From positions 80,734,948-80,798,947 of the forward strand of contig NC_092374.1 in NCBI RefSeq assembly GCF_030028105.1: a stretch of DNA of 64,000 bases. The letters run 5' to 3'. This DNA comes from Mobula birostris. Taxonomy: Eukaryota. The notes beneath the pieces were generated by a model. The model was not told the DNA's origin. It saw only the letters and a list, made by a program, of their open reading frames with translations, and searched no databases. Below are positions 5,461 to 61,242 of this stretch, piece after piece. Each line of letters begins with the position of its first letter. The first letter of the stretch is position 1. The position numbers and the translations under genes are program-made.

Positions 5461-5581
5461 ATGCTGCACTCCCGTTACTACTCTCCGAATGAGGTGGCGG
5501 TGCACAACACGGTGGACGACCTGTGGGTGTCCTACCTGGGCAGGGTGTTCGACCTCACCCCACTGGCCCAGGAGTTCCAAG
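5461..5581 (+). CDS. CYB5D1: CYB5D1 (cytochrome b5 domain-containing 1; ciliary radial-spoke protein), exon 1
   Basis: GCCATG Kozak context; encodes [41 protein letters not shown] (cyt b5 fold, HN...W motif). G|GTATTC donor, phase 1. An in-frame upstream ATG at 5437 could add 8 aa. Confidence 0.95.
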
Positions 5582-5689
5582 GTATTCGAGTCTCATGATC
5601 CGAGAGGAAGCGTGCTGGGGTGGTGGCCTACGCGGAGGGAGCGCAGCTGGTGCTGAGGAACCGTCGCGGGTATAGCGGTCAAAGTTAAG

Positions 5690-6593
5690 GGAGCGCCGCA
5701 GGTCGAGCAGCCAGAGCTGAGGCAGCGCCGGGGGTCGGGCGGCGAGAGCTGAGGCAGCGCCGGGGGTCGGGCGGCGAGAGCTGAGGCAGCGCCGGGGGTC
5801 GGGCGGCGAGAGCTGAGGCAGCGCCGGGGGTCGGGCGGCGAGAGCTGAGGCAGCGCCGGGGGTCGGGCGGCGAGAGCTGAGGCAGCGCCGGGGGTCGGGC
5901 GGCGAGAGCTGAGGCAGCGCCGGGGGTCGGGCGGCGAGAGCTGAGGCAGCGCCGGGGGTCGGGCGGCGAGAGCTGAGGCAGCGCCGGGGGTCGGGCGGCG
6001 AGAGCTGAGGCAGCGCCGGGGGTCGGGCGGCGAGAGCTGAGGCAGCGCCGGGGGTCGGGCGGCGAGAGCTGAGGCAGCGCCGGGGGTCGGGCGGCGAGAG
6101 CTGAGGCAGCGCCGGGGGTCGGGCGGCGAGAGCTGAGGCAGCGCCGGGGGTCGGGCGGCGAGAGCTGAGGCAGCGCCGCGGGTCGAGCGGCCAGAGCGGA
6201 GGCAGAACCGGGGGTCGGGCGGCGAGAGCTGTGGGAGCGCCGGGGGTCGGGCGGCGAGAGCTGAGGCAGAGCTGGGGGTCGGGCGGCGAGAGCTGAGGCA
6301 GCGCCGGGGGTCGGGCGGCGAGAGCTGAGGCAGCGCCGGGGGTCGGGCGGCGAGAGCTGAGGCAGCGCCGGGGGTCGGGCGGCGAGAGCTGAGGCAGCGC
6401 CGGGGGTCGGGCGGCGAGAGCTGTGGGAGCGCCGGGGGTCGGGCGGCGAGAGCTGAGGCAGCGCCGGGGATCGGGCGGCGAGAGCTGTGGGAGCGCCGGG
6501 GGTCGGGCGGCGAGAGCTGAGGCAGCGCCGGGGATCGGGCGGCGAGAGCTGTGGGAGCGCCGGGGGTCGGGCGGCGAGAGCTGAGGCAGCGCT
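5690..6593 (+). repeat. GC-rich 32-bp minisatellite, ~28 copies, in CYB5D1 intron 1
   Basis: Unit GCTGAGGCAGCGCCGGGGGTCGGGCGGCGAGA; explains the 32-aa periodicity of ORF 5593..6675. Confidence 0.97.
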
Positions 6594-6903
6594 GCAAGGC
6601 GTGCGGACAGAACTGAGGGAGCGACGTGGGTATATCAGTCTTCACCAATGGACTCAGAGACTCCACTTCAGCCATTGGGCCTTCAACTTCCCCACTGGAC
6701 TCTAGTTATCCCATCTTATTAAAGAGCCTGATGGTTGAGGGATAATAACTCTCTTTGGACTTGCTGGAGTGAATCCTGAGTCTCTAATACCTTCTACCTA
6801 ATGACAGCAGCAGAAACCATTTCTGTGATGGTAACAGAAAAACTAAGGTATGAGCTGGGCTTCGATGGAGACCACAGCTTTGCGCCATCTTGACCAATCT
6901 CTG

Positions 6904-8320
6904 CAACACTCACAACACTCTGGAGGAATTCAGTAGGTCGGGCAGCATCCGTGGAAACGATGAGTCGACGTTTCGGGCGGGAACCCTTCGTCAGGACTGT
7001 AGAGGGAAGGGACAGAGGCCCTATAAAGAAGGTGGGGGAGGGTGGGAAGGAGAAGGCTGGTAGGTTCCAGGTGAAAAACCAGTGAGGGGAAAGATAAAGG
7101 GGTGGGGGAGGGGAAGCAGGGAGGTGATAGGCAGGAAAGGTGAAGGAATAGGGGAAAACACAATGGGTAGTAGAAGGAGGCGGAACCATGAGGGAGGTGG
7201 TAGGCAGCTGGGGGAGAGGGCAGAGTGACATAGGGACAGGGGAAGGGAGGGGGAGGGAATTACCAGAAGCTGGGGAATTCTATGTTCATACCAAGGGGCT
7301 GGAGACTACTTAGATGGTATATGAGGTGTTGCTCTTCCAACCTGAGTTTAGCGTCATCATGGCAGTAGAGGAGTAGTAGACCCCACCACTAAGCACATCT
7401 TTCCCTCTCCACCCCTCTCCGCCTTCTGCAGGAATGGGTCCCTCTGCGACTCCCTGGTCCACACATCCCTCCCCACTGATCTCCCACCCGGCACTTATCC
7501 CTGTAAGCGCAAGTGCTACACCTGTCCCTACACCTCCTCTCTTGCCACCATTCAGGGCCCCAAACAGTACTTCCAGGTGAGGCAACACTTCACTTGTGAG
7601 TCTGTTGGGGTCACCTATTGCATCCGGTGATTCTGGTGCGGCCTCCTCTACATCGGTGAAACCTGACACAGATTGGGGACCGCTTCGTCGAGCACCTCCG
7701 CTCGTCCGCCAAAACAGACAGGATCTCCCGGTTGCCACCCAGTTCAACTGTGCTTCCCATTCCCATTCAGATATGTCCATACATGGCCTCCTCTACTGCC
7801 ATGATGAGGCTAAACTCAGGTTGGAGGAGCAACACCTCATATACCGTCTAGGTAGTCTCCAGCCCCTTGGTATGAACATTGAATTCTCCAACTTCCGGTA
7901 ATTCCCTCCCCCTCCCCCTCCCCCTCCCCCTCCCCCTCCCTCCCTTCCCCTATCCCTATGTCGCTCTGCCCCCTCCCCCAGCTGCCTATCACCTCCCTCA
8001 TGGTTCCGCCTCCTTCTACTACCCATTGTGTTTTCCCCATTCCTTCTTCACCTTTCCTGCCTATCACCTCTCTGCTTCCCCTCCCCGACCCCTTTATCTT
8101 TCCCCTTACTGGTTTTTCACCTGGAACCTATCAGCCTTCTCCTTCCCACCCTCCCCCCACCTTCTTTATAGGGCCTCTGCCCCTTCCCTCTACAGTCCTG
8201 ACGAAAGGTTCCGGCCCGAAACATCAACCCATCTTTTCGACGGATGCTGCCCGACCTGCTGAGTTCCTCCAGCGTGTTGTGAGTGTTGCTTTGACCCCAG
8301 CATCTGCAGAGTATTTTGTG
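6904..8320 (+). mobile_element. 5'-truncated Penelope-like element (GIY-YIG endonuclease 3' part) with inverted pseudo-LTR arm and 14-bp TSD
   Basis: Plus strand 7500-7900 gives CKCYTC, VTYCI...CGLLYIGET...EHLR...VATQFN...EEQHLIYRLGSLQPLGMNIEF across frameshifts. 6904-7373 is the reverse complement of ~7788-8289. TSD TTGACCAATCTCTG (6890-6903) / TTGACCAGTCTCTG (8321-8334). Confidence 0.9.
6963..6998 (-). ncRNA. Minimal type I hammerhead ribozyme motif (PLE-associated)
   Basis: Minus strand reads AGTC-CTGACGA-A-GGGTTCCCGCCC-GAAAC-GTC-GACT: core intact, stem I AGTC/GACT, palindromic ACGT stem III. Confidence 0.75.
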
Positions 8321-8653
8321 TTGACCAGTCTCTGATTGGCTATGCAGAATCTTATGGTGGGGGTGAGGGAGAGGGGAAATAAACAAGTTTGTCCAACTTC
8401 TCCTTGTGGTTAATACTCTCAAATATTCTGATAACCTCTTCTGCACCCTCTCCGAGGTGAAAGATCCCTTCGCCCTTGAGGTGTTAGAAACCCACCTGGG
8501 TTGGGTAACAAGACCTGAGGTCTGCTTACCACACCCTTTCTGCACCCCCCTTGACACAGAGAAGCTCCATGGAGAGTGTAGGTGTGCTCAGACTGTTTGG
8601 CTTTCCTTTCCCCTCTTCCTTCATCCATTCCCATTCTGAATTCTTCCGATTAG

Positions 8654-13410: not shown

Positions 13411-13617
13411 TACAGATCATCCATATGTAAGTATATTTTCCATACGTAAGTAGAAAAATATGGAATATGGCGTTAAGAGTTATAGAAAAAGTGCAGTGAA
13501 AGTAGGCAAATAGTATACAAGGACAACAGCAAGATAGATTATGAAATCAACAATTCATCCTTAATGTATAAGGTCCATTCAAGAATCTGATTACAGTGGG
13601 GTAAAAGTTTGGTCTAT

Positions 13618-14360
13618 CCAGGTGAAGGGTCTCAACCCAAAACATCGTCTGTCCTGAAATATCAACTGTTTATTCATTTCCATAGATGCTGCCTGACCTG
13701 CTGAATTCCTCCAGCATTTTGTGTGTCTGTTGGAGTCATCTACTGTATCCAGTGCTCCCGGTGTGGCCTCCAGTATATCGGTGAGACTCAACGTAAATTG
13801 GGAGACTGCTTCATTGAGCACTTACACTCCGTCCATCATAAAAAGTGGGATCTCCCAGTGGCCACACATTTTAATTCCACTTTCCATTCTGACATGTCAA
13901 TTTCTACCCCCCCCTTCACCATTTCCCATTCCCTTTTCCCTCTCATCTTATCTCCTTGCCTGCCCATCACCTCCTTCTGGTGCTCCTCCCCCTTTTCTTT
14001 CATGGCCTTCTGTTCTCTCCTATTAGGGTGCTCACTATCTCTTTCACCAGTCAACTGGCCAGCTTTTTACTTCACCCCTCCCCATTTTACCTATTGCCTT
14101 GTGTTTCTTCCTCCCCTCCCCTCACTTTCTAACTCTGACTCCTCATATTTTTTTCTTTGGTCCTGATGAAGGGTCTCAGCCTGAAACGTCGACTGTTCTT
14201 TATTCCATAGATGCTGCCTGGCCTGCTGAGTTCCTCCAGCGTTTTGCATGTGTTGCTTGGATTTCCAGCATCTGCAGAATCTCTTGTGTTTATGACCGCC
14301 TGTCTATTTTCCTCCATGAATGCTGCCCGAGCCACTGAGTTCCTCCAGCATTGTGTGTTA
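13618..14360 (+). mobile_element. Cluster of Penelope-like element fragments (GIY-YIG remnant plus 3' ends)
   Basis: ORF 13723 reads SVGVIYCIQCSRCGLQYIGETQRKLGDCFIEHL (GIY-YIG). Repeated GATGCTGCC...GAGTTCCTCCAGC terminal motif. Confidence 0.85.
14158..14195 (+). ncRNA. Minimal hammerhead ribozyme motif, sense to CYB5D1 intron 2
   Basis: TGGTC-CTGATGA-AGGGTCTCAGCCT-GAAAC-GTC-GACTG: core intact, stem I with G-U wobbles. Confidence 0.65.
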
Positions 14361-16823
14361 CTGTCTAGCATCTGGGTTTGGCTCCATGCATATTAGCAGC
14401 TGCTTAGTTTGCTAAGGAACTGAATCGAAATTTCCCCATTTCTGATTTTGTGTTGGATGGGCATTTGTTAATTAAGTGATGGTTGGCCCAAGAACACAGC
14501 CTCAGGGTGGAAATATTTGACAACAACCACCTTCCTCTGTATAAAGTGTGACTCCAATGACTGGAGTAAATGCACTGGATACCCGTAATCCTCCGCTCTT
14601 CCCGGTTTCCTTGATGATACTCTCTCAAATGACGTCAAGGACAGTCACCCTCAGCTTGTCGAAGAAAGCACAGCAACGCTTCTACTTCCGTAGGAGTTTG
14701 CGGAGATTCAGCGTGGCATCTGGAACTTTGACAAACTTCTACAGATGTGTAGTGGAGGGTGTATTGCCTGGCTGGATCCCAGCCTGGTATGGAAACACCA
14801 GTGCCTTTGAATGGAAAATCCTAGTGAATTGAAAAGCTAGTGGATTTGGCCCAGTACATCACAGGTAAAGTCCTCACAACCATTAAATACATCTGCTTGA
14901 AATACTGTCGTAGGAAAGCAGCATCCGCCATCAGGGACCCCCACCACCCAGGCCATGCTTTCTTCTCCTTTCTGTAAAAGGATTCGCACCACCAGGTTCA
15001 AGAACAGTTATTACCCCTCAACCATCAGGCTCTTGAATAAAAGGGGATAACTACACTCACTTGCCCCATCATTGGGATGTTTTCCACAACCAATATTCTC
15101 ACCTTTATCTCATTATTTATTAGGAGTTTCATTAGGGGTTTGAGGAGATCTGGTATGTCAAGGAGCGGTGCCTCAAGTAGGTGACATCTATCAGTAAAGG
15201 ACCCCCACCACCCAGAACATGCCCTCTTCTCATTGTTACCATCAGGAGGGAGGTACAGGAGCCTGAAGGCTCACACCCAGTGATTGTTTACTCCCCTCCG
15301 CCATATGGTTCCTAAATGGACATCGAACACTACCTCATTTTTTGTAAAATATATATTATTTTTTGTACTATATTTAATATATTTTATATACATCTGTATA
15401 CTTACTGTAATTTATTTTCTTTCTATATTAGAACATAAAATAGTACAGCACAGTACAGGCCCTTTGGCCCATAATGTTGTGCTGACCCTTAAACCCTGCC
15501 TCCCATATAACCCCCCCCCCACCCTGAATTCCTCCATATACCTGTCTAGTAGTCTCTTAAACTTCACTAGTGTATCTGCCTCCACCACTGACTCAGGCAA
15601 TGCATTCCATGCACCAACCACTCTGAGTAAAAAAACTTCCTCTAATATCCCCCTTGAACTTCCCACCCCTTGCCTTAAAGCCATGTCCTCTTGTACTGAG
15701 CAGTGGTGCCCTGGGGAAGAGGCGCTGGCTAGCCACTATCTATTCCTCTTATTATCTTGTATATCTCTATCATGTCTCCTCTCATCCTCCTCCTCTCCAA
15801 AGAGTAAAGCCCAAATATTATCATATATTGCATTGAACTGCTGCTGTTAAGTTAACAAATTTCACGACACATAGCAGTATTAATAAACCTGAATTCTGAT
15901 TCTAATTTTGTTGCCTCTGCACTCTGGTTAATCTTTCATTGATCCTGTTATAGTTACTATTCTATAGATTTACTGAGTATGCCCAGAGGAAAATGAATCT
16001 CAGGGTTGTATATGGTAACCTATGTGTACTTTGATAATAAAATTTACTTTGAACTCTATAATTCTGTTCTTTAGTGTGTGTTCAAGCTCAGGTCTGGAAC
16101 AGAATGATGCTGACAATATGCAAGCTGAACATCTGTGGTTAGTTATTGCCGAGTAAGTGCTGCTTGAAGACACTGTTAACAACACCATTCATCACTTTGC
16201 TGAAGGTTTAGAGAAAACTTATTGAGTGGTAATTAGATGGATGGGTTTGTCCAGCTTTTGCCATACCTGGGTGATTTTTTTTACAATGTTGGGTAGATGG
16301 CAGTGTTGTAGCTGTGTTGCTGCTAGTTGTGGATCACTGATCTTCAGTATGACAGTGGCACGTTGCCTGGTCCCGCCTGCATTTATTGCCCTCAGTTGTG
16401 TGTCGTGTCACGTGATGTGAATCAAATTGGCATTAGTGACATTGGCGACCTTGAAAATAAGCCAAGAAACTTCAAATTTCAACTAATAATAGAAGTCAGT
16501 AATTGATATAAAAGATTCAAAGTACATTTATTATCGAAGTGTGTATACAGAATACCACTCTGAGATTTGTCCTCCCACAGGCAGCCATGAAACAAAGAAA
16601 CACCATGGAACCTGTTCAAGAAAACATCAGACACCCAATGCGATAAAAAATGAACACATTCAACAAATGGCAAAAAGCGAGTGAATAACACACAGAATAC
16701 AAAACCAGGAGTCCAGTAGTATTCAGTTTAGTTCAGTTCAGTGCCCAGCTACTAGCCCACTGTAGGGCGCAGGTCCATTCTTCACTGAAGCGCCCCAGAC
16801 CACATCAATCACCACAATCAAAC

Positions 16824-19973: not shown

Positions 19974-20965
19974 TCAAACCGCTCAAAAACAGCAAAAAAT
20001 GAGAGTAACCAGAATCCAGGAGCACATGCAACAGGAAGCTCAAAGTTCATGCAACACTCCAACAACACAAGTCCTCAGCTTTGCCAATCAATCCAGGCAA
20101 GGTGGATCCCAAGGCTTCTGCACTTTCCTCCGACAGCAGCTAGCGAGAGGGAGAGGAAGACCGGGCAAACCTGAGCGGACGGCGTCGAACACCCGCCTGT
20201 CCTCCGCTCTCATCCTCATCGACTTCAGCCTTGCTTCACACCTCAATCGGAGGGAATCAATGGAGTCAATCATGGGCCCATGCCCTTGATGCCTCGATTG
20301 GAGGGAAGCAATCATGGACTTGAGCTCGTCTCCAGGGTTCCAGGCCTCCAAGCCACACACTCTGCACATCCATGGCCTGTACACACGGCCATGTGAAATG
20401 ATGGTACATCAATTGCTCTGCCCAACAGCATAAGAAATTGCACAGAGTTGTGGACACAGCCCAGTTCATCATGAAAATCAGCCTCCATTCCATAAGATTG
20501 AGGGGAGATTTGTTAGCGGTATGAGGGGTGAATGCAAGCAGGCTTTTCCACTGAGGTTGGGTGGGAGTACTACTAGAGGTCATGAGTTAAGGGTGAAAGG
20601 TGATCTCCCAATCTACCTTGCCATGGCCCATGGACTTTACTTGAATGTCTGCACTGCACTTTCTCTGTAACTGTAACTCTCTATTCTGCTTTCCTTTTGC
20701 TTCCTCATTTACTTGTAGATATTGAAATAATCTGTCTGGATGCCACGCAAACCAAAGCTTTGACTATATTTTGGTATATATGACAGAAATAAACCATTGC
20801 CAAAAATGTCAAAAGGTCCATGAGCCAACTGAGATACTACACAGTGTTGGGAGAGGTAGGTCTTCTTACTCAAGTTTAACTGTTGGTGCAAAGCAGTCAC
20901 AGTGGGGCAAATCCCAGAGACACCACCTTAGTCGAAGTGCAAATAATTACATATTGTAAATGAGA

Positions 20966-21190
20966 AACACGAGAAAGTCTGCAGGTGCTGGAAATCTTGA
21001 GCAACACAGACAAAATGCTGGAGGAACTCAGCAGGTCAGGCAGCATCTATGGAAGTCAATGTTTCAGGCCGACACCCTTCTGTAGGACATCCTGGTTAAG
21101 GGCCTCAACCCAAAATGGTGACTGTTTATTCTTTTCCATAGATTCTGCCTGACCTGCTAAGTTCCTCCAGCATTTTGTGTTTGTTACTTT
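20966..21190. mobile_element. Mini palindromic PLE-derived insertion (no coding sequence)
   Basis: Two inverted PLE terminal segments flanked by ATATTGTAAATGAGA (20951-20965) / ATATTATAAGTGAGA (21191-21205). Confidence 0.75.
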
Positions 21191-22379
21191 ATATTATAAG
21201 TGAGATTTGGTTTGTATTCTCTCTAATTGAGCTGTTGAAGATGATTAAAAGGTGTAATTGTGTAGAGAGCAAGAAAGAGAAAAGGAGACCTCTGGAAGCT
21301 GTCTAGAATAAGGACAACCTAGAATCAAAGTTCAGCCTGTAACTAACCTTTGCAATTTGGCCTGGCGCTTAAATTGACGAACCCTTGGGTCTTTCCTCGC
21401 TCTCAGGCCCGACCTCAATTCTGCCACATCAAATCATCTCCAATTCTGTTTCAGCAGTGGCCAAACATTCAGAAATAACTAAAAATGGCCTAAAAATCAG
21501 AACCAGGGTTCTGGGAGGCACCCATTCACACCCAGAATAGTGGGTGCCTGTCCCCAGAAAGCCATCAAGTCTTGGGTTGATATAAAATGATGGTCAGATT
21601 TTTGTTGGGCAAAGTGATGAAATGTTATGGAACTGCTAAAGGGAAAGGGTGATCCAGAAGAGTGACCAAATGGTCTCAAGAGGCCAAAAGATCTCCTCTT
21701 CCTTTGACCGCCTTGAATCCTGTTCACCATTTCTGCTCAATCAGCCATTCATTTTTGAACATAGAACAATTCTGCACATGACATGCCCTTTGGCCCACAA
21801 TGTCTGTGCCAACCATGATGGCAATTTAATCTAATACTTTCTGTCTGCACATGCTCCATATCCCTCCATTCCCTGTATAATCAAATATATATCTAAATGC
21901 CTTTTAAATATTGCTATAGCATCTGCTCCCACCACTTCTCGTGGTTTGCCCTGCAAGCCTCTTTTAACTTCCCTCCTCTCATCTTAAACCTATGACCTTC
22001 AGTATTTGATAGTTCCATCCTGGGATAAAGATTCTGATACACTTTTGCCAGGTCTCTCCACAGCTCGCAAATCTGACAAACCTCTCCATGGAGGTGAGGA
22101 GGTGAACTAAAAATACTTAAGTTTTTTTTTTCTCATTTTTCCCCTTGCTAACTAACCTTGCAATATACAAGAAGAGGTGAGAGGGTTGCATTTGTGGAGC
22201 CCTTCTCCTCCTGATCCTCGCCCCTCCGACTTTCACTCTGCTTCTGGGACAGATGGGGTGGCGAGACCTTGCATTGTGAAGATTACTGGGGGAATTTAAT
22301 GAAGTAGATAAGTCTGAAAGTCTGTGGGGAACTGGCACTGATACTGGGTTGGGCAGATTAGGCACGAAACAGTTAGCAT

Positions 22380-23117: not shown

Positions 23118-24109
23118 GTACAGAATGCCCTGTGGTCATTGTAGATGGGAGGGGTATTTGCGGTATCATTAATTGTCTGTTAAAAACGTAGGGCACGCCT
23201 GTTCCCTTTTGAGGAACAGTTCATAAGCAAGAAGTGCTGCACTGTGTATGACACTGAGCTGTAGAATAAGAGGGTGGGGAGAGGGGAAAGCCTGCAAGCT
23301 GGCAGGTGATAGGCGGAAGAGGTAAATGGCCAGAGAAGGAATCTGAGAGAGGACAGTGGACCATAAATGAAAGGAAGTGGGAAACCAGGGGGAGGTGATG
23401 GGTTGGTCAAGAGAAGAGAATCAGAATCAGGTTTACTATCAAGGGCAGCAGTTGTGAAATTTGTTGACTTTGCAGCAGCAGTACATTGCAATACATAATA
23501 ATAGCGAGAAAAACGCGAATTACGGTAAGTGTGTGTGTATATGTATGTGTGTATATATATATAAACTAGAAAGATTAAATAAGTAGTACAAAAACAGAAA
23601 CGAAGAAGTAGTGACAAAGTGTTCATCGGTCCAGTGCCCATTCAGGAATTGGATGGCAGAGGGGAAGAAGCTGTTCCTGAATTGTTCAATGTGTGCCTTC
23701 AGGCTTCTGTACCTCCTCCCTGATGGTAGCAATGACAACAAGGCATGTCCTGGGTGAAGGGGGTCCTTAATGATGGATGCCGCCATTTTGAGGCATCACT
23801 CCTTGAAGATGTCCTGGATACTATGGAGGCTGGTGCCCATGACGGAGCTGACTGAGTTCGCAACTCTGCATTTTATTTCAATCCTGTTCAGTAGTATTCC
23901 TCCCGCACCCCCCCCCCCCTTACCAATCAGTAATGCAGCCAGTTAGAATGCTCTCCATGGTACATCTGGAAATTTTTGAGTGTTTTGTAAAAAGGCCACC
24001 AGAATGGGGCAAAAAAAGGGGTTGGGAAATGGGAGTGGTTACCTGAAAGTTAATCAGATTAGAGACTACACAGCTGGGCTATGAGATGAAACACTGATTT
24101 CTCAAACTT

Positions 24110-25140
24110 CTTGTAATTGCTGCCCCCTCTCCTTCACCATTCCCTATTCCCATTTTCCTCTCTCACCTTATCTCCTTACCTGCCCATCGCCTCTCCTTCC
24201 TTTTCTTCCATGACATCTGGCCCTCTCCCATCCGATTCCCCTTTCTCCAGCCCTTTACCTCCTTCACCAATCGACTTTGCAGCTCTTTACATCAACCCGC
24301 CCCCTCTCCCAGTTTCACCAATCACCTGCCACCTGTACTTATTCCTCCCCTCCCCCACCCTCTTACTCTGACTTTTCATCTGTTTTTTCCAGCCCTAATG
24401 AAGGGTCTGGGCCCAAAACATTAACTGTTTAATCTTTTCTATAGATACTGCATGGCCTGCTAAGTACCTCCAGCATTTTTGTGTGTATTTCTTTGATTTC
24501 CAGCATCTGCAGACCTTCTCCTGTTTGGAATATGAGATATTTCTCCTTCAGCTTGAGTTTGGCCTCTTCATGCAGTAGAGGAGGCCGTGGACAGACAAGT
24601 CAATGTGGGAATGGGAACTTGAAATGAAATGGATGGCCTTCAGAGATCCCAGCTGTTGTAGCAGACAGAGCGAAGGTGCTCGATGAAGCAGTGTCCCAAT
24701 CGATGTTTCACTGAGTCTCACTGATGTAGAGAAGCTGCACTGGCAGCATAGGATACGGTAAATGACCCCGACAGACTCACAAGCGAAGTTTTGCCTCACC
24801 TGGTCTGTGTGCGGCCCTGAATGGTGGTGAGGGAGGGGGTGTAAGGGCAAGTGAGTCAGCATTTATGACGGTTGTGGAGATAAGTGCCAGGAGAGAGATC
24901 TGTGGGGAGGGATGGGTGGACAAGGACACAGAGTGATTTCCACCAACCACCCACCCTCCTGCTCTCACCTATCACCTGCCAGCTTGTACTCCCCCCACAC
25001 CTCAACTTTCTTATTCTGACTTCTGCCCCCTTCCTTTCCAGTCCCGAGGAGGGGTCTCGACCTGAAACGTGGACAGTTTATTCTTCTCCATTGATGCTGA
25101 CTGACTTGCTGTGTTCCTCCAGCATTTTGTGGATGTTGAA
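24110..25140. mobile_element. Degenerate PLE fragments in both orientations
   Basis: Minus-strand QVRQNFACESVGVIYRILCCQC GIY-YIG remnant (24548-24862); plus-strand termini with decayed hammerhead motifs at ~24393 and ~25040. Confidence 0.75.
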
Positions 25141-34370: not shown

Positions 34371-35339
34371 AGAGCAGGCCATTTAACCCTTCAAGTCTAC
34401 ACCAGCCATCTCCCACCATTTCCTTGTAACCTATTGCAGATAACCATTCAGTTGATTTAAAACTGAGATACACAGAGGATGGCGAATCAATGGAATTCCG
34501 TGTCTCAGAAAGTCAATGAGATTGGATCACTGAGGTAGATGAATTGTTTGAAAGATTGAACTGACAGAATTAGCTGTTGGATACGGGTATGATTACAGCG
34601 TTTAAAAGTACAGTACATGCATAGGAAAGATTCAGAGCAAGGGTTTCCAGCTTTTTTGATGCCATAGACCAATATCATTAAGTATGGGGTCTGTGGACCC
34701 GATGTCAGGAACTCCTGGTTTAGAAGGATATGGGCCAAACGAGGGCAGGTGGGACTAGATCAGGTAGGCAACTTGCTTAGCAAAGCTGAAGGTCTGTGGT
34801 ACATGGGGATTTGGTGCAGAGGAGGAGTTTGAAGTGCCGAATGGCCTACTCTGCTCAGTCATAGTGTCAGATTTATTACCACCGACTTGTATGTCATGAA
34901 GTTTGCTGTTTTGCAGCAGTAATACTGTGGAAAAACATAAAAATTGCTATAAATTACAAAATAAATACTGTATATAAATGGCATGGAATTCTTTATAGCA
35001 ATGGATGCAGCAAGGAGACAGGTCAACCAAGCCAACTATCAACTACCCAGTACATTCATACTACATTTTTAATAACTATTTATTGTTTTAGAACAGAGGG
35101 TCTGGGGGAGGCAATGTTTCCCCTAATAGCTGCACGGACTAACCATTGCTCTGAGGAGGAAATTTTTACACCATCTGAAAACTGCATGGCACTTTTTTTT
35201 GTAATATGCACACGATGAATATTTAGAATGAAAATTGAAAAATTAAATTTTATTTTATTTATTCATTGATAGGTGTAATGAAATACAGTACAACAAAAAA
35301 AACTTTCATTTTTCATAAACATTTTCCATTTGCATCCAA

Positions 35340-37440
35340 TTCCAGTTGTGTGGCATCAAAGAAGATGCGTGTGGGAGAATTTTAGTTACTGTGCGACAAC
35401 ATATGATATGTGCATGGGAGAATTTCAGTTACTGCGTGACAATAAATGATATATGCGTGGAAGAATTTCAGTTACTGCGCGGTGACAAATGATATGTGTA
35501 CGGGAGAATTTCAGTTACTGAGCGATGACAACGGATATATGCGTGGGAGAATTTCAGTTACTGCGCGGTGACAAATGATATGTGTACAGGAGAATTTCAG
35601 TTACTGTGCAACAACAAATGATATGTGCATGGGAGAATTTCAGTTCCTGTGCAGTGACAACAGATACGTGCATGGGAGAATTTAAATTACTGTACGATGA
35701 CAAATTATATGGGCGTAGGGGAATTTCAGATGCTGCGTGTCAACAAGTGATATGTGCACGGGAATATTCCAGTTACTGTGCAACAACAAATGATATGTGC
35801 ACGGGAGAAATTTCAGTTACTGTGTGACAAGAAATTATATGTACGTGGGAGAATTTCAGTTACTGTGCTGGGAAAATGGATATGTGCACAGGAGAATTTC
35901 AGTTACTGCGCAGTGACAAATGAAATGTGCACGGGAGAATTTCAGTTACTGAGTGACAACAAATAATATGTGCATGGGAGAATTTCAATTACTGCATGAT
36001 GACAAATGATATGTGCACAGGAGAATTTCAGTTACTGCACGACAGCAAATGATATGTACACGGGAGAATTTCAGTTACTGAGCGGTGACAACGGATATGT
36101 GCACAGGAGAATTTCAGTTACTGCGCGACAACAAGTGATATGTGCGTGGGAGAATTTCAGTTACTGAGCGGTGACAACGGATATGTGCACAGGAGAATTT
36201 CAGTTACTGCGCGACAACAAATGATATGTGTGTGGGAGAATTTCAGTTACTGCGCGGTGACAACGGATATGTGCGTGGGAGAATTTCAGTTACCGCATGA
36301 TAATAAATGATATGTGCGTGGGAGAATTTCAGTTACCGCGTGATAATAAATGATATGTGCGTGGGAGAATTTCAGTTACCGCGTGATAATAAATGATATG
36401 TGCGTGGGAGAATTTCAGTTACCGCGTGATAATAAATGATATGTGCGTGGGAGAATTTCAGTTACCGCGTGATAATAAATGATATGTGCGTGGGAGAATT
36501 TCAGTTACCGCGTGATAATAAATGATATGTGCGTGGGAGAATTTCAGTTACCGCGTGATAATACATGATATGTGCGTGGGAGAATTTCAGTTACCGCATG
36601 ACAATACATGATATCTGCGTGGGAGAATTTCAGTTACTGCATGACAACAAATGATATATGCGTGGGAGAATTTCAGTTACTGCATGACAATACATGATAT
36701 CTGCGTGGGAGAATTTCAGTTACTGCGTGGTGACAAATGATATGTGTACGGGAGAATTTCAGTTACTGCATGACAACAAATGATATGTGCGTGGGAGAAT
36801 TTCAGTTACTGCATGACAATACATGATATCTGCGTGGGAGAATTTCAGTTACTGCGTGGTGACAAATGATATGTGCGTGGGAGAATTTCAGTTACTGCAT
36901 GACAACAAATGATATGTGCGTGGGAGAATTTCAGTTACTGCATGACAACAAATGATATGTGCACGGGAGAATTTCAGTTACTGAGCGGTGACAACGGATA
37001 TGTGCGTGGGAGAATTTCAGTTACTGCATGACAATAAATGATATCTGCACGGGAGAATTTCAGTTACTGAGCGGTGACAACGGATATGTGCGTGGGAGAA
37101 TTTCAGTTACTGCGCGGTGACAAATGGTATGTGCACAAGAGAATTTTGGTTACTGCGCCACAATAAACGATATCTGCGTGGGAGAATTTCCCTTACTGCA
37201 TGACAATAAATGATATGTGCGTGGGAGAATTTCAGTTACTGTGCAACAACGAATGACATGTATATGGGAGAATTTCAGTTACTGCGCTGTGATATACGAT
37301 ATGTGTATGGGAGAATTTTAGTTACTGCGTGACAACGAATGATATGTGTATGGGAGAATTTCAGTTACTGTGCTGTGAGAAATGATACATGCATGGGAGA
37401 ATTTCAGTTACTGTGCTGTGAGAAATTATATAGGTGTGAG
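35340..37440 (+). repeat. 43-bp tandem array, ~49 copies; resumes for ~1.5 units at 42263-42335
   Basis: Unit ~TGATATGTGCGTGGGAGAATTTCAGTTACTGCATGACAACAAA, with a nearly constant GGGAGAATTTCAGTTAC core. Confidence 0.97.
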
Positions 37441-37674
37441 CAGGGCCGGATTAAGCTGGTGTGGGGCCTGTAGCATATGTTATAAAGGGACCCTAAATTT
37501 TAAAAAATGCACATAAGTATGAAAACATAAATTATTTACTTGCATAGTAAAGTAATTCAATTTTTTTCATTTGCTATACAGCCAGATAATATGACAAATG
37601 TCTGACACTTCAGTAATAGTATTACTTACATGCAGGTTTCAATTTCAAATGTCAAAAGTAACAAAACTACAATT

Positions 37675-40439
37675 TCAAAGTTAGATTTTCTAGATTTAGC
37701 ATGAGCAAATTTGTTGATGATACTGGAAATGTCTATTTCATGCAGAAGTTCATGTTCAATGCTCATTCGAGTGAGATTGTTCAATCTGTTTTGACCCATG
37801 GTGCTCCTTAGTTCATTTTTAATCCTTTTCAGTTTTGAAAATGAGCGTTCCCACTGCAGTTGGTAACTATGAGTGACAAATAGATGCGCAAGGCATTTTT
37901 TACATTTGAAAACATGACTCCAAAAGATTGTCAGTTATCAAATGATACAACTGTAACTCTACAAGGTCTTGTTTGGCGCCAATATGAGAAGCAAGATCAG
38001 TTTTCGACAATTCAGTAAACTGCACAAATTCTTCATTAAGACTTGCTTCCAGATCTTCTGGATATGATTTAATAAGATTTGATGACCTTTTTACGATCTC
38101 TTCAGGTGTAAAAGACTGTAACTGATGAAGGAATCCAAAAACACCATTCACCTTTAGATAACCTTTCTGCCTTTTTGACAGGGCAGAAAGTAAGCTGTCA
38201 ATAATGGCAGAAATGTTCGGCTTTTAAACTTCTGAGAAGGCATTTGAGATTCAACAAGAGGATCAAGAGTGCTGGAACCACTGAACTCATCATACGTGTG
38301 ATTTTGCTTGTGTTTTCTTTGAGTTCGCTGTTGATAATCTTCACACTTAGTCAGATCCTTGGCTTTTTGCTGAATGTCTGAAAAAGTAGACCGCATAGCT
38401 TGAATATATCCATGCAAGGATTCATAGAGTGCACAAGCTGTGTTCAAGTCTTGGCCAGAAGATTGCAAAGAAGCACTGGTCATTTGAAAATGCTGTAATA
38501 CTTGATCCCACAATATGACCATTATTCCTGTTTCCAACTTCATCATGGTTGAAAGTAGTCCACAAGCCTGTTGTCAACACTTTGCCTTTTCTGACCGTTA
38601 TTATTTGAAATGTCATCCAAGACTTGTTTTATTGCAGAAAAGCTGTGTAAAAGTGCTTTTGTTGCATCTGCACGAGCTGACCACCTGGTATCTGACATTC
38701 TTTTCACAATGGGCAAATGAGCACCACCATCAGATAATGCAGCAGAAAGGAGATCCCACCAATAAGTAGAAGCAGAAAAAAATATGTACAGGCTTTCTAC
38801 AAATTGAAAGAAAATTAATGCTTCTTGACAACATTCAGCAGCACATTTTTGGACCAAATTTAGTGAATGTGCAAATGATGATGATGACGATGATGACGTT
38901 GACTCAGACCTGAGAGTCCAGCGTCGGGCATTTTCATGCCTTACAAGGTGCAGTTCGAAAGGCTGTATGGGGCGCCACTCCTTGCACAGACATTTCACAG
39001 TATTATTTTACAAGGCCGAGTTGCGAGCTCAACGTCAACCTGGTGCGGATGGAGAGCACATATGGGGGCGGTCTGTCACTGGATCAAACTCGGGAACCTC
39101 TGTTCTCGAGCCCGGTGCTGATCCCACTGCACCACCAGTCGAATGTGCAAAACATTGAATATAATCTGCAAACTCATTCAGCTCTTTAATTCATGCTTGT
39201 AAGCCACTATACTTGCCACTCATGTTGCTGGCATTGTCGTAACTTTGACCACGGCAGTCTTTTATATCAATGTCATTTTCCTTTAAAAAGTCAAGTAAAC
39301 CTTGAGTGAGCTGTTCAGCACTATGACCCTCCATACCCAAAAACTTCACAAATCTTTCAACTGGTCCAGACGGCAAAACATAGCGCACAGTCAAAGTCAA
39401 CTGATCCACATTAGATATATCTGGAGTAGAATCCAATGAAGCAGAATAATACTTGTATTTCTTCACTTCACCGATAATGTGATCCAGTATGCTGGATCCA
39501 ATCAAATTGATGAATTCCTTACATAGGTATGATTTATGTCCCCTTCCTTGGTTTGCATGAGCATTTGTATGCTCTGCCAGAAAAGGGTCAAACTTGGCCA
39601 GTAATTCTAACAACCCCAAGTAATTTCCATTATGAGGAGAGCCAACAGTTTCATTGCTACCATGAAATGAAAGGCCTCTTTCCGCTAAAAACTTTACAAC
39701 TTCAATTATTCGCTCTAGAAGTGTGCGCCAATACTTTTGTTCAGTCTCCATTTCTTTCACAAGGTGGGAAGCAACACGCTTAGCTTTGTTTTTGCACATC
39801 GATGGTGAAATTAAAGCTTGTCTATGTGAGGAACTTTCTTCATGTTGACGTAATAGATTGCTTGCATTTTCCAGTCATCAAACCCCTCTTCACTAGACTT
39901 TGATGAACATCCTGAAGTCATAAACTTGTGTGGGAAACAGAATATGCTTCCTTTGCTTTCTGAATAGCATAACCAATTTCCTGCATGCTGCTTGTTTGTA
40001 GGTTTATGAACATATGTAAAATAAGACTTCTGACAGTGCCAAGGTTTCTTTTCATTGTCATACAATCGCATGGATGAAGAGAAGTCACTCTCAGTGTGTT
40101 GACATTCATCACTTCCCTTGGTTATCCAATATTCATGATCACAATCATCTAGATTGTTTGGCCATTCACCAATGTCATTAGAGTACTTGTTCTTTCACAT
40201 TGAATGGATGCTGGCTGTTGCTGTATCATGCCTCCTGCCGCACTAGTACTAGTTGTTCCTCTGTTTCCAGCTTCAGCCGTTATAGCACCATCACCATCTC
40301 CATGAACATCAAAATATTCTGTCGACTTGCGTGTTTTTGATATCACAAGTTGGTTTCTTATTTCTTTTTCTTCCTTCGCTTTACGTTTTGCACTTCCAGA
40401 AGCATAATGATGTCCAATATCTCTGGCTCTATTGCTCAT
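37675..40439 (-). pseudogene. hAT transposase pseudogene (ZMYM1/DUF4371-like DDE domain plus C-terminal dimerisation domain)
   Basis: MSNRARD...SGSAKRK; NGNYLGLLELLAKFDP; LDSTPDISNVDQL; RGQSYDNASNMSG; CFAHSLNL (split by a SINE); DTRWSAR; ERSFSKLKRIKNELRSTMGQNRLNNL. Multiple frameshifts; 3' end approximate. Confidence 0.92.
38876..39140 (-). mobile_element. Full-length tRNA-derived SINE with (TCA)n tail and 11-bp TSD
   Basis: A-box TGGTGCAGTGG, B-box GAGTTTGATCC; TSD GAATGTGCAAA at 38865-38875 and 39141-39151. Confidence 0.9.
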
Positions 40440-40540
40440 TGCTATCTGCAATGGAAAAAAAATGAAATATGCATTTAAAAACAAATAGTTTATGTTACAA
40501 AAGCTATGTAGCGGTATCAACAAAGACTAGTGAACAGTAA

Positions 40541-41101
40541 ACACAAAATAATCTGCAGATGCTGGGGTCAAAGCAACACTCACAACACACTGGAGGAACT
40601 CAGCAGGTCGGGCAGCATCCGTGGAAACGATCAGTCGATGTTTTGGGCCGGAACCCTTCGTCAGGACTGTAGGGGCAAGGATACCATCTAGGTAGTGTCC
40701 AGCCCCTTGGTATGAACATAGAATTCTCCAACTTCCGGTAATTCCCTCCCCCTCCCTTCCCCTATCCCTATGTCACTCTGCCCCCTCCCCCAGCTGCCGA
40801 CCACCTCCCTCATGGTTCCACCTCCTTCTACTACCCATTGTGTTTTCCCATATTTTTTCTTCACCTTTCCGGCCTATCACCTCCCTGCTTCCCCTCCCCG
40901 ACCCCTTTATCTTTCCCCTTACTGGTTTTTCACCTGGAACCTACCAGCCTTCTCCTTCCCACCCTCCCCCCACCTTCTTTATAGGGCCTCTGCCCCTTCC
41001 CTCTACAGTCCTGACGAAGGGTTCCCGCCCGAAACGTCGACTGATCGTTTCCACGGATGCTGCCCAACCTGCTGAGTTCCTCCAGTGTGTTGTGAGTGTT
41101 G
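40541..41101 (+). mobile_element. Short PLE insertion with inverted arm and perfect 14-bp TSD
   Basis: TSD CTAGTGAACAGTAA at 40527-40540 and 41102-41115; highly similar to 6904-8320. Confidence 0.92.
41006..41043 (+). ncRNA. Minimal type I hammerhead ribozyme motif (best-preserved copy)
   Basis: CAGTC (stem I)-CTGACGA-A-GGG TTCCCG CCC (stem II)-GAAAC-GTC^-GACTG (stem I'); predicted cleavage after 41038. Confidence 0.8.
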
Positions 41102-41606
41102 CTAGTGAACAGTAACAAATTTATGTGACTGTTGTGACTATGAGCGTGTGTGGATCACATACACTCAACAACCAACTAGGAATAGTGTTCTGAAAATTAT
41201 CTGTTTAGTTGCTCATTGAAAATCATTTCATTTGGGAAATACAGGTTGAAACTTACAGTCTAATCCAATCTTGTGTGTTCCTGAGCTGGTTCAGACTACC
41301 TAAAATCAGGAAACAAATGAGGAATCATGAACTGGGTCACATCAGACTGTTGAATTGCACATCCCCTGTCGCAGGCTGACTGCGGGGGCTGCTGGAGGGT
41401 GTGGCGTAACAGCGCATGCTGCAGTGGCTTGGCAGCATGGGAGATAGCACAAAGGTCACCACGACACAGTAAGGAGCCAACACACGCCTGCACAGACATA
41501 CTGTACCATGCACCATGCAGCATGCAGCATGCAGCTCCCCCGACATGAAAACAACAGCATTGCCATTCCGTCGTCGTTGTGGCGTGGATGAAATCACAGA
41601 GCATTA

Positions 41607-42133
41607 TGTTACCGGTAGGTACAAAGCAGTTTCTTTATTCAACAAAACAAGATTACAGCAGGCAGAGACCCCTGGCAGAACAGGTCTAACCGCCTTGTGA
41701 TTGAGGCTTGATATTTATTTGCTAAACACAAAGGACAGTTCATAGTTACAAGTATAGACAATTCTTAGAAGCTTTCACATCTTTTGGTTAAATTCATTCT
41801 ACCGGCACCAGTATGCCTAAACTGGCATTCATGGCCTTTAGGAATGCAAGTTAAGATCCATAATACATTATTTGGTACGTTACATGCTAACATAGAGGAC
41901 AATTCATATTCAGAAAGCATAGGTATGGTGTCTTCGCAACTACCTGTAAACTTAGCATTCTTGTCTCAGAGGCGCCAGAGATGCATTGTTACAAATGAAA
42001 CTGGGTTCACAGCTTTTAGGAAATGCATTGTTATGAACTCAATTCACAGTACTTTGTCAAAGAACAGAAGACTGATGGCTAAAGTCATTTATTTAAGTGT
42101 AAATGAATCGTTTACCCAAAACTCACTTTAACA
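41607..42133 (-). mobile_element. Possible solo LTR (527 bp) inside the hAT element
   Basis: TGTTA...TAACA termini; minus-strand AATAAA ~27 nt from the 3' end with an AT-rich TATA-like stretch upstream; TSD only partial (ATTA/GTTG). Confidence 0.45.
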
Positions 42134-54574: not shown

Positions 54575-55340
54575 GAGAGTGCTGTTTAGATACAGTGAAG
54601 CTCCCTGTATATTGTGCAATCACACACTTCCAGGGCAGTGTTAGATACAGGGTGAAGTTCCCTTGACATTATTCTAGCGCACACTCCCAGGACAGAGACA
54701 GCACAGGTTAGATACAGAGTGAAACTCCCTCTGTACTCTCCCGTCGCACACTCCCAGGACAGAGACAGCACAGGTTAGATACAGAGTGAAACTCCCTCTG
54801 TACTCTCCCGTCGCACACTTCCAGGACAGAGACAGCACAGGTTAGATACAGAGTGAAACTCCCTCTGTACTCTCCCATCGTACACTCCCAGGACAGAGAC
54901 AGCACAGGTTAGATACAGAGTGAAACTCCCTCTGTACCTCGCCCATCGCACACTCCCAGGACAGAGACAGCACAGGTTAGGTACAGAGTGAAACTCCCTC
55001 TGTACTCTCCCATCGCACACTCCCAGGACAGAGACAGCACAGGTTAGATACAGAGTGAAACTCCCTCTGTACCTCGCCCATCGCACACTCCCAGGACAGA
55101 GACAGCACAGGTTAGGTACAGAGTGAAACTCCCTCTGTACCTCGCCCATCGCACACTCCCAGGACAGAGACAGCTCCCTCTACATTGTTCCAGCAGACAC
55201 TCCCAGGATTTGGACAATATCAGTTAGATACAGAGTGAATCTCCGTCTGCATTATTTCACATATTCTCAGGACCAGCTCAGGTTTAATACAGGATAATGC
55301 TCTCTACATTGTCCCAGCAGACAATCATAGAGCAGGTACA
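54575..55340 (+). repeat. 67-bp tandem array in CHD3 intron 1 (~7.5 homogeneous copies at 54680-55175 plus degenerate flanking units)
   Basis: Unit CACACTCCCAGGACAGAGACAGCACAGGTTAGATACAGAGTGAAACTCCCTCTGTACTCTCCCGTCG. Confidence 0.95.
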
Positions 55341-59208: not shown

Positions 59209-60558
59209 TAGTATTCAGACTTACTATAATAAGGTTTAGAAATAAAACTCAAGCACATGTAAGCAAAAGTTAATGGTACTGTTGATCACATCTTCCATTA
59301 CGTTGCTAATGACTGAAATTGTTTTAGACTATACATGTTCAGTATGCATCAACAGGGCATCTAGTCAATTCCATGTAACTCAGCTGGGATATTGCTGTAT
59401 TCACTGCTCTTGGTGCTGCTTAATGTCACTTGAAATCAGTTGAATTGGCTGATGGTATGGATCATCCAGTTGTCACTTCTGCTTGAGTATGGTTGCAGTG
59501 CTTCAGCCTCCTCTTCAGTTTGTGCGTTAAGGATTGGGATTTCAGAGTTCCTATCTCTCACTGGCTGCTGAACTGTCCATCACTATATCTTGATATGACA
59601 GGACCTTAGAGTTTTGGTCTGAACTGATGTGTGTGGAATCACAGTCCTGTCTATTGCATTCCATCTTTCCTGCATTTAATCCTGTGTTGCAGCTCGGCAC
59701 CTGTTAGGTGTGCCTGCTACTCTGGATGTGCCTTCCTGATTTACCTAGGAGTTGGCTCTCTCCCTGATGGTGATGTTACAATAAAGGATCTGCCAGGCCA
59801 GGAGGTTATAGTGAATACCATTATGTTGCTACTGATGATGCACAGTGGTTCATGGAGGCCAGATTTAAGTTGCCATGAATGTTCTGATCTCATCAATTTA
59901 AGTGGCCACTAACATGAAGGCAGTTGTAAACTCAGCCAGCTCTATCATGAGCACGCACTTCCCCGCATCCAGGACATCTTCTAGGAGCGATGCCTCAAAA
60001 AGGCAGCATCTATCATTAAGGACCCCCATCATCCAGGACGTGCCCTCTTCTCGTTGCTGTCATCAAGGAGGTTTTACAGTAGCCTGAGGGCACACTCTCT
60101 AAGTTTCAGGACGGTTTCTTTCCCTCTGCCATCAGGTTTTTGAATGGACAATGAATCCTTGAATCAGAATCATATTATCACCAGCATGTGGTGTAAAATT
60201 TAACTGAGCAGAAGCAGTTTAATGCAATAAATGATAATATTGAAATAAATAGATCAAATACAGTAAGTGTATGTATATTAAATAGATTAAAAATAGTGCA
60301 AAACCAAATAATATATATTTAAAAAATAAAGTAAGGCAGTGTTCATGGGTTCAATGTCCATTTAGGAATTGTATGGCAGAGGGGATGAAACTGTTCCTGA
60401 ATCGCTGAGTGTATGCCTTTTGTATTTCCCTCCTGATGGTAGCAATAAAAGACAGCATAACTTGGGTCATTAATAATGGATGTCATCTTTCTGAGGCATC
60501 GCTCCTTGAAGATGTCTTGGGTACTATGGAGGCTAGCACCCAAAATGGAGCTAATTTT

Positions 60559-60701
60559 GCTGGTGAACGCAGCTGATGAAGGGTCTTAACCCGAAGCGTC
60601 GACTGTACCTCTTCTTAGAGATGCTGCCTGGCCTGCTGCGTTCACCAGCAACTTCGATGTGTGTTGCTTGAATTTCCAGCATCTGTAGAATTCCTCGTGT
60701 G
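60559..60701 (+). mobile_element. 143-bp PLE mini-insertion with perfect 14-bp TSD, inside a Rex/Babar-like remnant
   Basis: TSD ATGGAGCTAATTTT at 60545-60558 and 60702-60715; 14-nt inverted stub followed by CTGATGAAGGG...CCCGAAGCGTCGACTG. Confidence 0.85.
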
Positions 60702-61242
60702 ATGGAGCTAATTTTACAACTTTCTGTAGCTTCTTTCTGTCCTGTGCAGTAGCCCCCCCCCCCCACCTGCCCCCATTCCAGACAGTGAAGCAGCCTGACA
60801 GAATGCTGTCCATGGTACACCTATAGAACTTTTTGAGTGTTTTATTTGTGAAATCAAATCTCCTCAAACTCCTAATGAAATTTAGCTGCTGTCTTGCCTT
60901 CTTTATAACTGCTTCTACATGTTGGGACCAGGTTAGATTCTCAGAGATCTTGACACCCAGGAGCTTGAAATTGCGCACACTTTCCACTTTTGATCCCTCT
61001 ATGAGTATTGGTCTGTGTTTGTGTTCCCTCATCTTACCCTTCCTGGTCCACAATCAGCTCTTTCGTCCAACCGACATTGAGTTCAAAGTTGTTGCTGCAA
61101 AACCTCTCAACTAGCTAGTATAGCTCGCTCTCGTATGTCCTCTCATCTCCATCTGAGATTCTACCTATCTCGCTCCTGAACATTACCTCACTTCTTTTTC
61201 CTCACTTTTTTTGCATTATTTAATTTATATATAGAGAGAGAG

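Follow-up and report, generated by a model that had tools for sequence, protein, structure and literature searches.

Results

Organization of two insertions with inverted arms

The present analysis concerns a window of 64,000 nt from the genome of Mobula birostris. It carries two insertions, insertion 1 (6904-8320) and insertion 2 (40541-41101), each made of two head-to-head, 5′-truncated arms of the same Penelope-like element (PLE) family (Table 1). The architecture that an earlier note had attributed to both of them was found again: the arms are inverted, one having a short end and the other a long end. Both short arms stop at GAGTGTTG, and the long arms extend 32 and 33 nt beyond this point. 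The 14-bp target-site duplications (TSDs) at unrelated targets, also announced by that note, are present, with 13 of 14 and 14 of 14 identical positions, respectively, and the two target sequences are unrelated to each other. In insertion 1, the short arm is wholly contained in the sequence of the long arm, and we infer that the five junction nucleotides are untemplated or locally re-copied. In insertion 2, each arm carries sequence that is absent from its partner (about 310 nt in the short arm, the 33-nt tail in the long arm), and there is no extra nucleotide at the inversion junction. The lower identity (88%) between the arms of insertion 1 was considered as a sign of different templates but was rejected as such, since it results largely from the 28-nt microsatellite expansion.

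Table 1. Coordinates in the window of the two-armed PLE copies and of their parts
Feature	Position	Strand	Details
Insertion 1, left TSD copy	6890..6903		14 nt; final base also fits arm end
Insertion 1, short-ended inverted arm	6904..7373	-	470 nt; predicted hammerhead motif 6962-6999
Insertion 1, junction nucleotides	7374..7378		5 nt, fit neither arm's expected continuation
Insertion 1, long arm, ORF remnant	7379..7901	+	Decayed C-terminal ORF: CX3CxxC linker, GIY-YIG endonuclease
Insertion 1, long arm, pLTR-type 3′ segment	7902..8288	+	28-nt microsatellite expansion; decayed hammerhead at about 8193-8230
Insertion 1, tail	8289..8320	+	32 nt
Insertion 1, right TSD copy	8321..8334		One mismatch with left copy
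Fourth two-armed copy, older	20951..21205		Tailed arm 20966-21089 (-); short arm 21090 to about 21186 (+)
Fourth copy, flanking repeat	20951-20965 and 21191-21205		15 nt, 2 mismatches; may be 16 nt
Insertion 2, left TSD copy	40527..40540		14 nt
Insertion 2, long (tailed) arm	40541..40680	-	140 nt; tail 40541-40573 (33 nt)
Insertion 2, short-ended arm	40681..41101	+	421 nt; minimal hammerhead motif at 41006-41043 still intact, cleavage predicted after 41038
Insertion 2, right TSD copy	41102..41115		Identical to left copy
Third two-armed copy, different subfamily	60545..60715		TSD 60545-60558 and 60702-60715 (exact 14 bp); inverted arm 60559-60573 (15 nt); tailed arm to 60701

The target of insertion 1 (6894-6903 and 8325-8340) includes a short inverted repeat, CCAATC / GATTGG with a 3-nt spacer, lying across the inferred top-strand nick; no such repeat was noticed at the three other targets. 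Insertion 2 is located in the multi-copy upstream flank of decayed transposase-like frames with a DUF4371 domain (E 1e-13; 38154-39874, minus strand), which presumably belong to a hAT-type DNA transposon.

Assignment to the PLE family

Judging from the features given in PMC8557442, both insertions are dead, truncated copies of a PLE with a putative C-terminal endonuclease, of predicted Neptune type. No reverse transcriptase (RT) or full ORF is left in insertions 1 and 2. The remnant at 7379-7898 aligns to residues 276-449 of the ray protein P0002, its stop coming after the endonuclease. It is interrupted by a frameshift and in-frame stops and is 77-89% identical both to P0002 and to proteins labelled Hypanus sabinus and Mobula hypostoma. 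Further upstream, P0002 has the motif RYVDN; its GIY-YIG match (E 8e-4) falls short of the Pfam cut-off. In the matched ray proteins, an RT YxDD-like motif is followed by a CX3-4CxxC linker and then by a GIY-YIG domain with an internal CxxC. The Pfam GIY-YIG model matched two of the three proteins tested, below its curated cut-off (E 5e-4 to 8e-4), and was absent from the third; a Pfam search of the broken frames of the window found no GIY-YIG. The pattern V[IV]YC..C..C..LYIGET...H is present in five of eight homologues and is decayed yet recognisable in insertion 1. The Neptune-type CX2-5CxxC linker upstream of a C-terminal GIY-YIG domain is found as CKRKCYTC in the frame of insertion 1; such a linker also exists in Nematis, and Naiads carry an N-terminal endonuclease (PMC8557442).

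A minimal type-I hammerhead motif, of a type described for PLEs in PMC4209133, is predicted upstream of both ends, at a distance of 63 nt from the short end and of 96 nt from the long one. Its descriptor matched at 41006-41043, in two more arms and at one place outside the arms (12496). Rfam gave no match at the gathering threshold and, by E-value, only chance-level matches. As in endonuclease-positive PLEs, the arms form an inverted 5′-truncated copy with a one-sided tail of 30-40 nt (32, 33 and 36 nt here). The PLE identity proposed by the earlier note is supported by the GIY-YIG remnant, the linker and the hammerhead motif. Three ray proteins that match the PLE ORF at 71-81% identity (P0001, P0002 and P0006) are named mucin-2, divergent kinase and chitinase-domain isoforms, host-gene names that likely result from mis-annotation or exonisation.

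Preferred end-points and additional two-armed copies

Of the 26 matches at E<1 that a profile built from 12 arm ends gave in the window, nine stop at the long point and another seven at the short one (16 of 26 at two fixed points), these figures being partly circular since the 12 arm ends are among the 26 matches and the profile itself stops at the long end. The 16 matches belong to at least two subfamilies and the flanks beyond them are unrelated. The 10 others end elsewhere and are mostly old fragments, two of them being weak matches. In a third two-armed copy (60559-60701), the inverted arm lies inside the sequence of the tailed arm, with one shared base at the junction. Its short arm falls 17 nt short of the usual short point, so that the stagger is 52 nt. 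The two end-points, previously described as fixed, should therefore be considered as preferred but not invariant. In the fourth copy, the truncation point is nearly the same in both arms.

Truncation of the 5′ end within or next to the hammerhead core was observed in several arms (9585, 21089/21090, 45445 and 60573), in small numbers and with no control; this core is possibly an RT stall point.

Target-site duplications and nick spacing

The 14-nt TSDs are the longest repeats found in the flanks of insertions 1 and 2. In a control of 200 random positions, each searched within 2.5 kb, which imposed no requirement for the repeat to sit at an element boundary, an exact repeat of at least 11 nt was found at one position and a repeat of at least 14 nt with one mismatch at four. 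The TSDs of the four measurable two-armed copies are 14, 14, 14 and 15-16 bp long; 11 of the 18 arm ends tested had no called TSD partner within 2.5 kb. For lengths of 14, 14, 14 and 15, the fit is about 18 times better with a spread of 1 bp than with one of 3 bp, which is suggestive only with four copies. Two equal lengths would occur by luck in 9-27% of cases for standard deviations of 3 to 1 bp. Three 14-bp TSDs out of four hint at a nearly fixed cut spacing; the constancy previously claimed holds for these three copies but is not established, given the fourth copy and the small number of copies.

The TSD overlaps the next templated bases of the element by 1, 2, 2, 2, 2 and 0 nt at the six priming junctions (chance 0.007-0.02, with the template assumed, from other copies, to continue as TT past the long end). 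This suggests a brief primer-template pairing, and the overlap of 1-2 nt makes the apparent TSD length an upper bound on the nick stagger. In insertions 1 and 2, the first base of the TSD, a C, is also the next base of the element, so that the combination of a 14-bp TSD and a 31-32-nt stagger put forward in the earlier note counts one C twice. The consistent counts are a 14-bp TSD with a 32-33-nt stagger or a 13-bp TSD with a 31-32-nt stagger. No shared target motif is evident across the four sites, and there is no microsatellite among these targets.

Related genomes

Four public runs, each from a different related organism, provided the contigs that were aligned to 39900-41800; runs with small word shares were left out as evidence, and the rows with loose ends mix subfamilies. 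Three contig pieces from two relatives have their limits at the borders of insertion 2: one (record 28) ends at 40526 and two (records 23 and 29) begin at 41102. These positions are the left-normalised breakpoints of a 575-nt skip, which is what would be expected if the 14-mer occurs once, i.e., at an unoccupied site. The breakpoints are therefore consistent with an unoccupied site at insertion 2, although the joining row itself is absent among the 15 joints listed out of 379. It should also be emphasized that the flank of insertion 2 is multi-copy and lies beside a decayed DUF4371 frame, so that the sites of the relatives may be paralogous.

The sides of these 15 listed joints (out of 379) measure only 21-42 nt at 85% likeness, and some may therefore be mis-placed. 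Thirteen of the joints link the two arms at other positions, with an overlap of 0-6 nt and often with inserted letters, and three have a left piece that lies wholly inside the tail. The 13 arm-to-arm joints indicate that two-armed copies are frequent in the genomes of the relatives. One contig (record 27) skips 40448-41542 (1,095 nt), insertion 2 included, with no direct repeat at the borders, and likely corresponds to a deletion in a paralogue.

Discussion

Proposed mechanism of integration

Insertions 1 and 2 were likely generated by double target-primed reverse transcription of a Neptune-type PLE. The GIY-YIG endonuclease would nick both target strands, at positions some 14 nt from each other, so that 3′ overhangs are left. 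Each 3′-OH would then serve as primer for a separate cDNA on the element RNA. One cDNA would begin at an internal short start and the other at a long start located 32-36 nt further 3′, priming often being helped by 1-2 nt of primer-template pairing. Both cDNAs would stop early and join head-to-head with little microhomology, and fill-in would produce the inverted arms, the tail at one end only and the TSD. Since the TSD is kept on either side and each flank adjoins a 3′ end of the element, the 3′-OH of each strand can prime one arm, which would imply a 3′ overhang of about 14 nt. Among the diagnostic sites, one groups the arms by insertion, one does so weakly and two group them by arm type, a distribution that fits one or two RNAs. 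Priming from two distinct RNA positions, as proposed in the earlier note, agrees with the in vitro results obtained for a Poseidon PLE, where both strands are cleaved and extended, two RT starts are used and the one-sided tail is the gap between these start sites (PMC11167929); this inference had therefore already been published. The same paper predicts a dimer and presents the integration steps past first-strand synthesis as still unvalidated.

An inverted arm could also derive from a fold-back, i.e., from self-priming of a single cDNA or of an antisense template without any second target-primed event, a model discussed in PMC3846280, where self-priming was argued from junction palindromes. 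Insertion 1 and two older copies fit either this model or double priming: the sequence of the long arm covers the entire short arm in insertion 1 and in the third copy, and the arms of the fourth copy are cut off at almost one point. However, each arm of insertion 2 holds private sequence and so needs its own template, which excludes a simple fold-back for this insertion. Furthermore, the junctions of insertions 1 and 2 are non-palindromic, relatives have tail-only left pieces joined to longer opposite arms (among the 15 joints listed out of 379), and both strands are extended in vitro (PMC11167929). Overall, we regard a fold-back as unlikely. Even less credible, to the point of being very improbable, are two independent one-armed insertions or a later recombination, with flanking repeats that would be due to chance or pre-existing. 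One-armed copies are common in the window, and 28 of 422 positions differ between the arms of insertion 1, which is not below the 21-24 counted between arms taken from different insertions; however, the private changes are alike between arms (15, 12 and 8), which fits neutral decay. In addition, one TSD brackets the entire unit in three to four cases, exact 14-mers at both boundaries greatly exceed what the random-position null gives, and the contigs of the relatives break as a single-copy 14-mer predicts.

Within double target-primed reverse transcription, the spacing of the nicks is a separate matter. The two RT starts could be used as proposed while the second-strand nick is loosely placed, as in LINE-1, which would lead to broad TSD lengths with a mode of about 14-15 bp and would make the three 14s out of four partly a matter of luck; this has close to an even chance of being correct and rivals only the fixed-stagger part. 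It agrees with the length of PLE TSDs being called variable (PMC8557442), with the TSDs of 8-10 bp or none of A. vaga PLEs (PMC3846280), with the 15-16-bp repeat of the fourth copy, and with the LINE-1 TSD peak at 14-16 bp (PMC2912911), which makes 14 bp an ordinary length for a target-primed insertion. On the other hand, three equal lengths have a probability of about 1% for a standard deviation of 3 bp versus 8.5% for 1 bp, and 14 bp recurs across two subfamilies and for two distinct starts of the short arm. We therefore put forward only tentatively, and as somewhat doubtful, that Neptune PLEs would integrate in rays through a two-strand reaction that is concerted and in which, as with a transposase, the 3′ stagger is nearly fixed at 14 nt. 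The geometry of an RT-endonuclease dimer would set this stagger, whichever RT start is used, and the 1-2 nt of primer-template pairing would fine-tune it. If true, this model would overturn the stated view of a variable PLE TSD length and provide a genomic ruler for the dimer model. Our literature search, whose coverage was incomplete (most subscription papers and the older D. virilis work lay outside it), found no distribution of TSD lengths for a PLE family. The available text of PMC11167929 gives neither TSD length nor nick spacing, and the available parts of PMC9977147, PMC8969392, PMC12910113 and two preprints add nothing on the length of PLE TSDs to the statement that it is variable.

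Comparison with known systems

The layout described here (inverted pLTR, tail of 30-40 nt and two RT starts) is already published (PMC11167929, PMC8557442). Like the canonical unit of endonuclease-positive PLEs (Neptune, Penelope/Poseidon; PMC8557442, PMC3846280), the ray copies have 5′-truncated arms, an adjacent inverted copy, a 30-40-nt tail at one end, a predicted pLTR hammerhead, a GIY-YIG endonuclease at the C terminus and a TSD around the whole unit. The tail of Pen2a from A. vaga is 31 nt long, but the TSDs of A. vaga PLEs are 8-10 bp long, compared to 14-16 bp here, and self-priming was favoured for them (PMC3846280). As in PAc, a Poseidon element of Anolis carolinensis (PMC11167929), two internal RT starts define the tail and the hammerhead lies shortly upstream of the starts; PAc cuts and extends both target strands, which the anatomy of the ray copies would also imply. 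Unlike PAc, the ray element has a Neptune linker, and would thus belong to a different clade by this feature, and its targets have no consistent ATT motif. Moreover, five of its six junctions overlap by 1-2 nt, whereas PAc initiates without target homology (PMC11167929). LINE-1 twin priming resembles the proposed reaction, since both target strands prime cDNA and a head-to-head inversion results, but in that case the same RNA is primed once at its 3′ end and once internally by annealing (PMC2912911). Here, both ends are preferred internal family positions 32-36 nt apart, there is no poly(A) end and the arms overlap by 107-470 nt, which does not correspond to twin priming of the LINE-1 type.

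As it stands, this work confirms a published footprint, and only a sharp genome-wide TSD peak would add novelty. With it, the two-start footprint known from Poseidon is also seen in a Neptune-type element, and a ray family rich in two-armed copies would be a cheap dataset for nick spacing, start-site choice and junction repair.

Other elements of the window

The arm ends did not fold better than shuffled sequences (z -1.2 to +0.8), and no stem-loop is proposed for them. A scan for the tail pattern gave no match in viral and metagenome contigs, and a scan for the pLTR pattern gave none in viral contigs and one each in a metagenome and a genome contig, both unrelated beyond the motif and rejected as chance. 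No full-length tandem pLTR-ORF-pLTR master copy was found within the window. An old nested PLE is located at 24000-25138, where a tailed sense arm (24090-24526) lies inside the inverted, endonuclease-containing arm of another two-armed copy. A TSD was looked for around this structure and not found; an 11-nt repeat beside the end at 25138 was rejected since it sits within an element arm. Another old PLE copy, at 13600-14374, is a partial tandem: a short pLTR piece is joined at about 13730 to sequence of the endonuclease, and the tail is followed by a second piece of pLTR. Tandem arrays with units of 32, 43 and 67 nt occur at 5537-6700, 35249-37500 and 54600-55250.
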